Shown in pieces: positions 34,763-64,000 of a stretch of 64,000 nt of DNA; position 1 is the stretch's first letter; each line of letters opens with the position of its first letter. The notes under the pieces are model-generated. The model had not been told where the DNA came from and searched no databases. It was given only the letters and a program-made list of their open reading frames with translations. Location: NCBI RefSeq assembly GCF_965641715.1, contig NZ_OZ282455.1, one strand, 5' to 3'. The position numbers and the translations under genes were made by a program. This stretch comes from Escherichia coli (GTDB lineage: Bacteria > Pseudomonadota > Gammaproteobacteria > Enterobacterales > Enterobacteriaceae).

Positions 34763-37700
34763 TCATCGGCCGGGGCTGTGGGAGAGATCCTGATGCAGAG
34801 TTTTTTCCTGCCTGTCCTCCGGCTTTTGGCTGTTGGACCACTGCTGCCATGACTGCTCGAAGCCCAGGTTCCGGTACAACGCATCAGGTTGTTTTTCCGG
34901 CGTGTAGACAGCAGCAAAAAGCGGTTCTTCCCGGGTTTTCAGATGAAACTGCATAAGCTCCGGTGCGGGGCGATTCGTGCTGTCAGCATCGTGGTTTACC
35001 GCTTCACCATAACCTGCAAAGCGTAAACCTTTGTCGGTCAGCGCATTGATAACCAGCTGACTGTTGTCGGCTGATGGGGTGGCCAGTGCCGGATACAATG
35101 TGCCGTTCAGCCGGACCACACCCTGCAGATGTTCATCGGCACTCTGGACAAGTAGCAGGTTGAGTTCACGCGTATCCTTATCCACTGATCCCAGAACAGG
35201 TGTCAGCTTGTCAGGGGCTGCGCTGGTTATTTCTGTTACCTGATTTGCGTTCTGTGGCGCGGAGACCGGATGTCGGTCTTCACCGATAAACAGATGTGAG
35301 CCGACGTTTTCTGGCATACGTAACGTTTTCATCTCTTCGGGCCACCCCTGGCTGATTTGCGCAGCCACTTTCATAAAGGTTTCGACCGGAATCGCCTGAA
35401 TACGCTGACCTTTATCCGGATTATCATGTGATACCGAGATCCCGTTGGTAACTGACTCCATGGACCACTTATTCCGGAAACGTGCTTTTTGCTCTCCCGG
35501 GAGGATGAATTGTTCGCGGTTCTGAAGTGTCAGTGTCACCACGTCACCTTTCTGATGGTTTTTGACCAGACTTTCCAGTTGCTCCCCCCAGTAGAGTTTG
35601 CTGCCACTGCGGTTTTTAAGCTCAACAAAGAAACTCTCTCCTTTGCCGGGTGCATATTCAGCACGACCAAAATTGTGCAGTACGGCAGTCACGCTCTCTC
35701 CCGGGCGAAGTTTTCCTGGTGGTTCTTCACCTTGTGCCGCATCTGCCGTTTTGCCAGGTTCAGCCGGTGATGATGCAGGGACGGTGCTGACGGTTGATGC
35801 TTCAGGGGCTATTGGGGACGCCGGGGATTGTGTGGCTTCTTTTTCCTGAACAGGGTCTGGGACTGCTGGTTGTTCAGGGGTATTCCGGTTAAGTTCCGGT
35901 GTTGGCTTATGGGTGACAACAGCATCCTTACTGACAGCCATTTCCTTGCGTAATTTTTCTAGTTCAGCCCGTTGATCTGGCAATTTCATCCGGACATCGA
36001 TGTTGTGCTCGATAATCAACTGCATTGCTTTTTGCTTAAAGGCATCACTGCCCGTCAGCTCTATGACGCCCCCATAAAATTTGGTGGCCACAGCAAGTGC
36101 GGCCAGAACGCTGCGATCGTCATTGCTGGCACCGTTGACCATTTCCAGCCGGTTTACCCGGTCAATGAAGGCAGGTTTGCCATCCAGTTTGTACAGGACG
36201 GTTCTGTCTGCTCGTTTTTCCCAGTCGAGCTCTTTAAGAATTTCGTCCATGTTGAGCGATATCGGTGCATCAGAACGTTCCGGGGCGTAGACAATACTGT
36301 CAGGTATCGGTGGAGTCGTCGTGGTTTCCGCTGAGGGCGTGGGATCACTGTTCTCATGTGCCTGTGAATCCGTTTTTTTACGCGTAAAAAAGCCACGCGC
36401 TTTGTCGAGAAACGATGAAGTATTATCAGAAGGTGATGTGCTCTGAACAGGTTGCTGTGGAGTGGGTTCATCCCGGACAGCCGGTTCTGCAGTATCTGTT
36501 GTGGCCTGAAGTTCTGACTCATCTGCCTGAACGTGGTCTGTGTCCGGTTGCGACGGCATATCACTGTTTTCCTGCAGATGCTCAGGATTTTCATTGTTCA
36601 TCAGCTCCTGATATGCGCTGTAGTTTTCGTATTCTTCGGGGCCATCTGACTCAGGAAGGAACGGCTCTGGCTGAAGGGGAATGTCTTCAGTTACATGGTT
36701 GACCGCCTCTTCCCGGGGAGTATCCGGGGATATTCCGGTGCTTTGTTTGTCATCAGGCTCCGTCATCACGGTCATTTCCTCTTTGACTGCATCAGGGGAA
36801 GGTGATGGCTCGGCTGATTCATTCATGGTTTCAGATGAGGGACTGTCTTCAGGGGATGCGGGGGCGGCAGCAGGGGCCGGTATTTCAGGTGAAGTGCCGG
36901 ATTCCTGTTGTGACTCGTTTTTTTCCGGTTGTGACAGTTCGGCTTCAAATTCACGCCAGTCTTTATCTGTGGCCACCGAGACAACTTTTTCCGGAGGTTC
37001 CGCCGGATGAGCGGGTTCATCAGGGGCAGATGCCGTTGTACTTTCCGGGGACGCCGGTGATTCTGCAGGGGAGTCCTGAACTACAGAGCTTTCCGTTTGC
37101 GCCTGAACGTTATCAGCGTGCCGCTCATCTTTGCCGTTATTTTCAGTGGCGTGACTGGTAAATGACTGTGTTTCATCAGCAATGTTACTGCTGGAAGCAG
37201 CTGGTTGTTCCTGCTGCGTGGCGGACGGCAGAGAAGGTCCCTGGTCATGGCTGTGCCCTGTATCGGGTGATGTTTCAGGATATTCTGTCGGAGTCATGGT
37301 TTTTTCCTCAGTGTGGACCGGTGTAAAAACGAGGTTGCCGATCACCAGTGCCTCGCGGATTTCCGGGGTGTTACTGTTGGGGGTGGAAACCCCGATGTGT
37401 TCTAACTGGGCGTTGATGACATGCTGAAAAGCGGCCCGTCCCCGGCTTGCGTCCAGGTCATTGAAATCGGTCAGCCCCTGCGCTTTTTCGGCATCGGTGA
37501 ACGCAGGAAAGATGACCGTTCCTCCTGTCAGTTCTGCGGCTTTTGTTGCACTGACGATACCTTTGTTAACCCGGATTGCATGATCGTTGTCGGCACAGAA
37601 GATAAAGGGGCTTTGCGTCCACTTTTGCCGGGCATTTTCGGCAACGGCAATCATGTTGCCTCCATCCACCGTCATCAGTACCGGAAGGCCCGTGGCTTCG

Positions 37701-62604: not shown

Positions 62605-62913
62605 TCACATTTTTTCGTTTTCTTTAGCTGTATTGCTAATCATGAAAACGAAAGTTCGCATCAGCACAGCAGAGCGAAGTGCATCATATCCTTCCAGATT
62701 TAAATTCTTCAGGCTTCGCTTCAGGTAGGTTCGTACCGTTTCGGGAGAAAGCCGACAGTTCTGAGCAATGGCGTCGTAAGGAACACCCATTGCGTAAAAA
62801 ACGCAGACTTTAAGCTGGTTTGTTGATAGCTCGGGAAACATGCCTTCCAACAGAGTGATGGCCGGGAGTTTCTGTATCAGTTGAGGTGACATAGCAAAGG
62901 TCTCCGATGACAA
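62605..62913 (-). CDS. LuxR/GerE-type HTH transcriptional regulator (tra regulatory gene)
   Basis: C-terminal HTH pattern LKVCVFYAMGVPYDAIAQNCRLSPETVRTYLKRSLKNL. Confidence 0.55.
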   Translation of the reverse strand: MSSETFAMSPQLIQKLPAITLLEGMFPELSTNQLKVCVFYAMGVPYDAIAQNCRLSPETVRTYLKRSLKNLNLEGYDALRSAVLMRTFVFMISNTAKENEKM

Positions 62914-63230
62914 CTAAAAACGCTATCACCGAGTTCCTACGCTCATTGGTGATAGCCCAGACGGGGGTAGGAATACCGGCGTCATCGGAAACCGGCCAGG
63001 CTAATGCCTGCCCCGCCTGAGCTACCATAGATGACGACAAGAAATACAAGTTCCTGTCTTTATGGTATGGCAAAAAACGACGCCAAATGAAGAAATTAAC
63101 TTCTGCGCCGACGATGACTACGCGGGTTCCTACGCCCGATCACAGTTTTGCCTGTGACCAGTAAAGGGTACTTAGTATAACGCACCGAGTCAACTAACAG
63201 CTTAAAAAACATACAAAAAAGCGTCAAAAC

Positions 63231-63365
63231 TTAACGCTCCGCGCCGAAGCGATCCAGGCATGATGCTTCTGCTTTGTGGCGTTCGAACATGCTGGTCCAT
63301 ATGCACGAAACGGTGTCTGACCCTCGTCCAGACAATCCGCAGTTCTGACGAACATATGAACAAAT
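63231..63365. repeat. conserved ~135-bp intergenic element, copy C (upstream of the LuxR-type gene)
   Basis: See copy A. Confidence 0.6.
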
Positions 63366-63439
63366 ATGCTCTTGTAGAGGCTGTTGTTACACAATTGGCG
63401 GGTTGTGTAACAAATGGTTTTATCATCTAAGAATTATTC

Positions 63440-63600
63440 TATTTACGATCGAATGATCTACAAAATGATTTTTTAAAGGTTATTTAGATCGTTTAATTGC
63501 ATTAAAACAGAATATTATTCTGTTGGGTAGATCGGTTGTAAGATAAATGATCGTGAGTAGGACAAAAGTCGATCTTTTAATCCAAAAGAAAGATCTAAAG
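63440..63600. promoter_or_regulatory. AT-rich region with a cluster of GATC-containing short repeats
   Basis: At least seven GATC sites, mostly as (T)AGATC(G/T), within about 160 bp. Confidence 0.3.
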
Positions 63601-63892
63601 CAGAAAAATCTGCTTTTAAAAATAGATTTTATTTTTTTGACGCAGGTCAAGATTAACTTATTAGAGGTATCAGTGAGGAGGCACTGGAAGAGAAGAGATC
63701 GTTGTAATGCTTTTCAAATTAACGTAAAGCGGGTATATTTCGGCTGTTATTAGCTGTGCAGAGGGTGGCACTCTGTGGAGCAAAGCGGCGAAAGCCGGAC
63801 GGCAGAATGCGCCATAAGGCATTCAGGAGAGATGGCATGTACGGACAGTAAGTCAGAAGACTGAAGATGTTCCGGAAGCCATAAAAGGAAAA

Positions 63893-63943
63893 CCCCCACT
63901 ATCTTTCTTACGAACTTGGCGGAACGACGAAAGATAGTGGGGG
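63893..63943. promoter_or_regulatory. IncI-type replication-control stem-loop (target/antisense Inc RNA region); rep genes lie beyond the window
   Basis: Perfect 15-bp stem CCCCCACTATCTTTC / GAAAGATAGTGGGGG with a loop containing TTGGCG, the loop hexanucleotide I recall for IncI/IncB copy-number control RNAs. Confidence 0.45.
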
Positions 63944-64000
63944 CCTCACAGAATACGGGTAAAGTATAATGAAACCGTACCAGAGATTCAACCCTGTGCA

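Follow-up and report, generated by a model that had tools for sequence, protein, structure and literature searches.

The DNA examined here, hereafter the window, is a stretch of 64,000 nucleotides from Escherichia coli. Its final 1 kb is 100% identical to many IncI1-type plasmids from Escherichia, Salmonella, Shigella and Klebsiella, with 1,657 plasmid records matching it, and the right end of the window is the IncI1 backbone of an IncI1-type resistance plasmid. The gene layout was taken from the annotation of one identical plasmid, complemented by open reading frame (ORF) and Pfam checks. Three transfer genes run leftward on the minus strand, namely traC (61377-60694), traB (62184-61630, NusG-like) and traA (62913-62605, with a LuxR-type HTH), and the Inc RNA/repY/repZ region runs rightward (plus strand). 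The divergent gap between the transfer regulators on one side and the replication genes on the other is occupied by an array of seven GATC sites (63447-63595, unstranded), corresponding to positions 35926-36074 of pESBL (NC_018659.1). For comparison, diverged relatives were gathered by protein searches with TraB and RepZ, near-identical copies being uninformative. These relatives are a Salmonella Hadar plasmid (L003, 69.5% identity in the array stretch), an IncK2/Z plasmid (L004), an IncB/O-like plasmid (L007), pmk1 of Klebsiella sp. (L010, TraB 47% identical), the S. diarizonae plasmids L017 and L018, and an IncI2 plasmid (L022).

On the replication side, a promoter scan located a candidate sigma-70-like promoter of repY/repZ (hereafter the rep promoter; TTTTCA-17-TATATT, 63711-63739, plus strand). 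Both hexamers are conserved in five lineages, and the scan gives the same promoter at the corresponding place of the very distant relatives L007 and L010. Downstream of it is an invariant leader inverted repeat, GAATGCGCCATAAGGCATTC (63805-63824, plus strand), of which 18 bases out of 20 (ATGCGCCATAAGGCATTC) are shared without change by the window, L003, L010 and L007; an exact-pattern scan of genome contigs with this 18-mer returned five loci, mostly chance matches. The repZ leader, composed of stem-loop I with its TTGGCG loop and of the pseudoknot region, occupies positions 63885-64000 (plus strand) and ends at the window edge. It is recognized by the Rfam model PK-repZ with 144.9 bits (E = 3.7e-33); stem-loop I is that of an IncI/IncB-type rep leader, and the GATC array lies outside the PK-repZ model. 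The Inc antisense RNA gene is on the minus strand (63885-63991; CopA-like match of 38.2 bits, below threshold), with its promoter, TTGAAT-17-TATACT, placed by the promoter scan at 63991 to 63963 (minus strand).

On the transfer side, the array is adjoined on its left by a hairpin with 11-bp perfect arms (TTGTTACACAA-TTGGCGGG-TTGTGTAACAA, 63384-63413), which has a TTGGCG loop and is separate from the repZ stem-loop. A hairpin with a GGCG loop and a different stem is found at the same place in L003, L004, L010, L017, L018 and L007. The loop TTGGCGGG resembles that of repZ stem-loop I, and the flanking loop seems to track the stem-loop I loop of its own plasmid: both loops read UUGGCGG in the window, UUGGCGGA in L003 and UGGCGAC in L010. 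The hairpin might offer Inc RNA a second target or a decoy, provide the tra leader with an Inc-like loop, or belong to a separate antisense pair. Further to the left, two overlapping terminator-like hairpins followed by T-runs (63218-63251, minus strand) separate the non-coding stretch 63200-63430 from the C4 module described below; their core, GGCGCGGAGCGTT, is kept even in L010, just upstream of traB. An ORF of 74 codons (ORF74, 63426 to 63202, minus strand) was also considered as a gene with its promoter in the array, and was discarded as not conserved, its counterpart being interrupted by stops in all frames of L003 and having ATA as its start codon in pESBL.

The GATC sites of the array start at positions 63447, 63455, 63487, 63530, 63549, 63571 and 63592. 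The original prediction of at least seven sites in about 160 bp is therefore confirmed, with seven in 149 bp. The spacings between neighbours are 8, 32, 43, 19, 22 and 21 bp, five out of six falling within 8-32 bp, and the tra-proximal end of the array is formed by the pair with 8-bp spacing (cGATCgaatGATCta, 63447-63458). The array was also predicted to lie just before the stem-loop; it is indeed on the upstream side, but it ends about 295 bp before the repZ stem-loop region (63885-64000) and about 115 bp upstream of the -35 hexamer of the rep promoter. An eighth GATC (63697-63700) is located 11 bp upstream of this hexamer, in helical phase with the array.

The array lies in AT-rich DNA, whose GC content is 28% over positions 63440-63650 and varies between 26 and 34% along the stretch. 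From base composition, 0.49 GATC sites would be expected over 63440-63650 against the seven observed, and a local first-order Markov model gave a mean of 0.84 and a maximum of five in 20,000 simulations; the local probability of the array density is below 5e-5. In addition, GATC is under-represented in the 64-kb window as a whole (163 sites vs 268 +/- 16 in dinucleotide shuffles), and the next densest 160-bp stretches of the window contain three sites at most. The density is thus far above expectation and as unusual for the window as had been claimed: the cluster is a real feature, and not the result of chance.

In L001, a plasmid that is 100% identical, repZ contains a single GATC and the following 2.9 kb, in which the IncI origin lies, has none, and the array is therefore the only GATC cluster of the replicon. 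This GATC-free segment of L001 (4113-7001) starts within repZ and extends across the region beyond it. Because oriC and P1 oriR are likewise AT-rich with clustered GATCs, it may be asked whether the array is a vestigial or auxiliary origin, or an unwinding element, of the same type, and weak matches to the oriC 13-mers (one to two mismatches) are indeed present. However, neither iterons nor a repeat family nor an IHF consensus nor a conserved DnaA box was found in the array region; DnaA-box-like matches (one mismatch) are confined to both arms of the 63384-63413 hairpin, and these arms lack conservation in L003. Moreover, IncI plasmids have their origin downstream of repZ. An origin was accordingly rejected, and we consider this reading extremely improbable.

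A comparison with related plasmids revealed the array in diverged relatives, so that neither outcome that would have spoken against the original prediction, an ordinary density or absence from related plasmids, was observed. In a seven-lineage alignment, the GATC 4-mers of the window are kept on average in 2.43 of four independent lineage groups, as compared with 0.46 of four for the other 4-mers of the same stretch (permutation P < 1e-5), a result that comes from a small sample (seven lineages, two pairs among them related) of very diverged DNA and that might be inflated if the aligner had anchored on the GATCs. Such an artefact is argued against by pmk1 (L010), in which six GATC sites have gap-free spacings of 22, 19, 43, 32 and 8 bp, the mirror of the 8, 32, 43, 19 and 22 bp of the window. 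With blastn, the intergenic region of L010 retrieves itself alone, i.e. has no detectable similarity to the window, and this lineage is therefore strongly diverged. Array GATCs are kept in lineages beyond the reach of blastn, with the exact spacing kept in one of them.

The most conserved site is the GATC at 63549-63552, present in all seven aligned lineages. The 8-bp pair is kept in L003, L004, L010, L017 and the IncI2 plasmid L022 (cGATCtaatGATCt), and the GATC at 63697 is not conserved in L003 or L010. The bases flanking 42 collected GATCs display A/T richness only, with no extended motif, and selection therefore appears to act on GATC itself. This variability of the flanks points to a protein that reads exactly GATC (Dam, SeqA or MutH, for instance) and speaks against a regulator recognizing a longer motif. 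All the carriers of the array belong to the Enterobacterales (Escherichia, Salmonella, Shigella, Klebsiella, Citrobacter and Serratia), genera in which Dam and SeqA are present. An analogy with the P1 pac site, which reportedly contains seven GATCs in about 160 bp, was dismissed, since conservation of the P1 hexamer TGATCA/G is lacking in the array.

The sites are also phased with respect to the DNA helix. Relative to the first site, those of the window lie at 0, 8, 40, 83, 102, 124, 145 and 250 bp, which modulo 10.5 gives 0, 8, 8.5, 9.5, 7.5, 8.5, 8.5 and 8.5, so that one face of the helix carries six of the seven array sites, or seven of the eight if 63697 is included. Phasing was evaluated by the Rayleigh statistic with a period scan from 8 to 13 bp and Monte Carlo p-values. 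For the seven sites of the window, R was 0.87 at a best period of 10.4-10.5 bp (p = 0.005), and inclusion of 63697 (eight sites) gave R = 0.875 (p = 0.0013). Values for the relatives were R = 0.93 at 10.3 bp for L017 (p = 0.0006), R = 0.94-0.98 at 10.2-10.3 bp for the L007 array (p = 0.004), R = 0.86 at 10.4 bp for L010 (p = 0.02) and R = 0.84 at 10.4 bp for L018 (p = 0.025); the four sites of IncI2 L022 showed a trend that was not significant (R = 0.83, 10.3 bp, p = 0.13). Therefore, one-face phasing is significant in five of six lineages, with a best period of 10.2-10.5 bp in each, and it survives in lineages whose individual GATC positions differ.

These data bear on the possibility that the array is a chance or hitch-hiking cluster devoid of function. 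While transposon sequencing (TnSeq) of pESBL did not flag the array stretch (PMC4288162), such a cluster would have to combine the very low local probability, the conservation across lineages and a phasing that recurs independently in five of six of them, and we regard this as very improbable. SeqA binds pairs of hemimethylated GATCs located on the same face of DNA at limited spacing, and multimerises (PMC2691817). Neighbouring sites of the array lie on the same face and within about three helical turns of each other, as SeqA sites do, and a density above that given by composition and a selective conservation of GATC, both characteristic of SeqA clusters, are found as well. As regards the Dam- or SeqA-sensitive control of the rep promoter put forward in the original prediction, its Dam/SeqA part is hence supported by the GATC-specific conservation and the one-face phasing.

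The array region has further properties that do not involve methylation. AA/TT dinucleotides recur in it with a period of 10.2 bp (P < 5e-4), in periodic A/T tracts, and the DNA of the array is therefore probably intrinsically curved. Inside the array there is a palindrome, AACAGAATA-T-TATTCTGTT (63506-63524), with 9-bp arms that are 100% complementary and contain no GATC. Its core CAGAAT-N3-ATTCTG is kept in IncI2 (AACAGAATAATATTCTGTT) and in L018, and its right half is conserved in all lineages. The palindrome is a candidate operator, and its conservation suggests an additional sequence-specific binder; it resembles no regulator consensus known to us. In addition, a conserved block, CGATCTTTTAATCCAAAAG (63570-63588), surrounds GATC number 6, and its TTTT and CCAAAAG 4-mers are kept in two to three of the four lineage groups. 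On these grounds, the region might be read as curved AT-rich DNA acting as an H-NS nucleation site or an upstream bend, or as the site of a palindrome-binding protein, the GATCs either belonging to the sites of that protein or being incidental. The periodicity and the low GC content, the perfect 9+1+9 palindrome conserved as far as IncI2, and the block around GATC number 6 all speak for it. However, neither curvature nor H-NS binding needs GATC, whose 4-mers are about five times better conserved than the others while their flanks vary freely, and lineages in which the sites have moved still hold them in helical phase. We consider a methylation-independent function distinctly unlikely as an explanation of the array, although a role of curved DNA and H-NS, or of a palindrome binder, may coexist with a Dam/SeqA function or replace it.

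If the array is a target of Dam and SeqA, the question arises of which neighbour it serves. The array accompanies this rep family, including IncI2, whose RepA is 73% identical and whose transfer system is different (MPF_T, with traB absent); in IncI2 the pair with 8-bp spacing and the palindrome are retained, along with two more GATCs, and their distance from rep is unchanged. Extra, non-homologous GATCs are found around the rep promoters of L017 (five in 80 bp), L018 (four) and L007 (three). In the rep relatives IncFII, pYV and IncL/M the array is absent, and a gene of the CopB/RepB/RepC type is located upstream of rep.

Alternatively, the array could serve mainly transfer, as a switch responsive to Dam, or a sensor of hemimethylation, placed upstream of the regulatory operon traA/traB, by which expression of the tra regulators would change after replication or conjugative entry, as with Dam/Lrp at traJ of F-like plasmids. 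This would agree with pESI, the Salmonella Infantis megaplasmid, which has the array and traABC and lacks the IncI rep, the junction being at about 63690; with the IncB/O-type L007 and with L010, L017 and L018, where traB is the immediate downstream neighbour of the array, neither traA nor the C4 module intervening; and with the conserved hairpin between the array and the tra regulators. Furthermore, deletion or disruption of the neighbouring Hft region shifts transfer 10-20-fold, and the intergenic region therefore controls transfer (PMC4288162). The published Hft region of pESBL (NC_018659.1 35394-35663; PMC4288162), however, maps to about 62916-63185 of the window and excludes the array; the two are adjacent but separate, and identity of the array with Hft is ruled out. 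A traA::lacZ fusion depends on Hft itself (PMC5801416). Moreover, IncI2 keeps the core of the array despite its unrelated transfer system, and no conserved leftward promoter was found in the array: the predictions differ between lineages and do not align (63542 to 63514 in the window, 3602-3631 in L007, none in L010). A main role in transfer thus appears unlikely, if less so than a methylation-independent one.

The evidence for rep as the neighbour served is not uniform either. In addition to pESI, pSEP has an IncI-type rep from about 63684 rightward and no array, a case that is not decisive because an IncQ1 replicon is present in pSEP as well. Depending on the lineage, the array and the rep -35 are separated by about 100 to 250 bp, and a fixed promoter geometry is not evident. 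An IncI2 repA reporter starting at -497, and therefore without the 8-bp pair, is active (PMC8053102). The array-rep association thus favours the rep promoter as the target named in the original prediction, and pESI and pSEP count against it, as do the active reporter, the variable distance and the absence of the GATC at 63697 from L003 and L010. The breakpoints of the two chimeras nearly coincide between the array and the rep promoter (about 3311 in pESI, L005, and about 3001 in pSEP, L016), and on this evidence positions around 63684-63690 mark a module boundary or a recombination-prone spot.

Considering all of the above, our preferred reading, held tentatively and a little on the doubtful side of balance, is that the array is a protein-docking platform dependent on Dam methylation, with SeqA as its most likely ligand, in the divergent control region that separates the rep promoter of I-complex-type plasmids from their transfer regulators. 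The main target of such a platform would most likely be the rep promoter, and the array may act on both the rep and the tra sides. In the resting plasmid, all eight GATCs would be fully methylated by the Dam of the host, and would become hemimethylated upon passage of the replication fork, or upon complementary-strand synthesis after conjugative entry. Sites on one face at spacings of 8-32 bp could then, according to this proposal, bind a cooperative, high-affinity SeqA multimer, thus delaying remethylation of the array. Curved DNA coated by SeqA about 115-290 bp upstream of the rep -35, together with the GATC at 63697, would transiently alter the activity of the rep promoter, the simplest outcome being a lower transcription of repZ just after a round of replication; a refractory period would thereby be added to the slower copy-number control by Inc RNA. 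Transcription running leftward to the tra regulators may be influenced by the same SeqA event. The sequence data themselves establish the density, the GATC-specific conservation, the phasing, the position beside a conserved promoter and the distribution among plasmid families; what we infer from them is that SeqA binds, that remethylation is delayed and that transcription or copy number is affected.

A more ambitious version of this proposal is that the array works as a 'history sensor' common to the replication and transfer control of I-complex plasmids. Hemimethylation would mark a plasmid that has just been replicated or has just entered by conjugation, and SeqA, once bound to the array, would briefly reset the rep promoter as well as the transcription running leftward to traA/traB. 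We regard this as improbable.

Several known systems may be compared with the proposed platform. SeqA sequestration is reportedly established at E. coli oriC and the dnaA promoter, where, as in the array, a dense GATC cluster has neighbours within about three helical turns on one face; the array likewise stands beside the promoter of an initiator gene in a Dam+ SeqA+ host. Unlike them, the array, a putative sequestration site, is carried by a plasmid whose initiation is governed by an antisense RNA and a cis-acting initiator. Unlike oriC, moreover, it is upstream of the rep promoter and outside the origin, the origin region of the plasmid being GATC-free. Clustered GATCs in plasmid replication control are also said to occur in P1 oriR and in the ColE1 RNA II primer promoter, and to block function there when hemimethylated. 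Those of P1 are in heptamer repeats inside the origin core, whereas the array has no repeat unit, and ColE1 has three GATCs within the primer promoter itself, as compared with seven sites 115-290 bp upstream of the promoter.

As for conjugation, Dam and Lrp reportedly control traJ and finP of pSLT and F-like plasmids. There too GATCs are upstream of a conjugation regulator in an enterobacterial conjugative plasmid, and hemimethylation after replication or transfer is the signal, a feature shared with our proposal. However, traJ/finP have one or two GATCs in an Lrp site or promoter, while the array is a phased set of seven with no recognizable Lrp, OxyR or IHF motif, and is associated with a rep family. 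SeqA is also said to activate lambda pR through upstream GATCs; in this case an effect of SeqA on transcription comes from GATCs upstream of a promoter, but, unlike the seven-site array, the sites are few and respond to full methylation. Finally, conserved GATCs in intergenic regulatory regions are found in the phase-variation switches of pap, agn43, opvAB and std, in which a DNA-binding regulator and methylation compete (PMC4856963, PMC6735912). Those switches have 2-4 GATCs within Lrp, OxyR or HdfR sites and heritable undermethylated patterns; in contrast, no extended motif surrounds the GATCs of the array, and its candidate operator, the palindrome, has no GATC. A search of the accessible literature found no account of the array, which would be a new case, GATC clusters acting via SeqA/Dam being already well known.

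Plasmids of the IncI1, IncI2, IncK and IncB/O groups count among the main vehicles of ESBL, AmpC and mcr-1 genes, and textbook accounts of their copy-number control rest purely on antisense RNA and a pseudoknot. If the proposal is correct, a conserved SeqA-type array by the rep promoter would add to this control an epigenetic layer that follows the replication cycle. Its location between the control regions of rep and tra might in addition allow the array to connect replication or conjugative entry with the expression of transfer genes. A true history sensor would provide a post-replication refractory period, and would help explain the high-frequency-transfer state of freshly infected ColI/IncI1 hosts, a classic phenomenon still unexplained to the best of our knowledge. 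Even if inert, the array would still mark the rep/tra module boundary at about 63685-63690, where the chimeras pESI and pSEP are joined.

A gene of the ProQ/FinO family was noted downstream of rep in L003 (4967-5369), L010 (959-1465), L018 (201-824) and L022 (5412-5999). The IncI2 member of this family, PcnR, has been described as regulating copy number through the rep leader (PMC8053102), and by analogy PcnR-type control may be widespread in I-complex-like plasmids.

The Hft 'superspreader' locus in turn contains, as judged from Rfam and base-pairing, a complete C4 antisense RNA module of the P1-immI type (62903-63171, minus strand). The C4 RNA is at 63032-62945 (minus strand; Rfam C4, 77.5 bits, gathering score 45). 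The loop of this RNA, UCCGAUGAC, finds its complement in GUCAUCGGA (62911-62903), a segment that overlaps the traA Shine-Dalgarno. For GUAGGAA at 62940-62934 the pairing partner is a second element, UUCCUAC; a1/b1-like copies of both targets are located upstream, at 63133-63127 and 63118-63112. A link between C4 RNA and traA was found neither in the two Hft papers (PMC4288162, PMC5801416) nor in the other literature searched. The 'ash family protein' ORF of this locus (Hp1 of pESBL, 62810-63073, minus strand) matches Pfam Phage_ASH only over residues 9-52, a stretch that is the DNA encoding the C4 RNA, and Hp1 is therefore probably an RNA gene read as a protein; in published work, its overexpression had no effect on transfer. 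The module is predicted to be aimed at the traA ribosome-binding site, which would give a simple explanation for the superspreader insertions.
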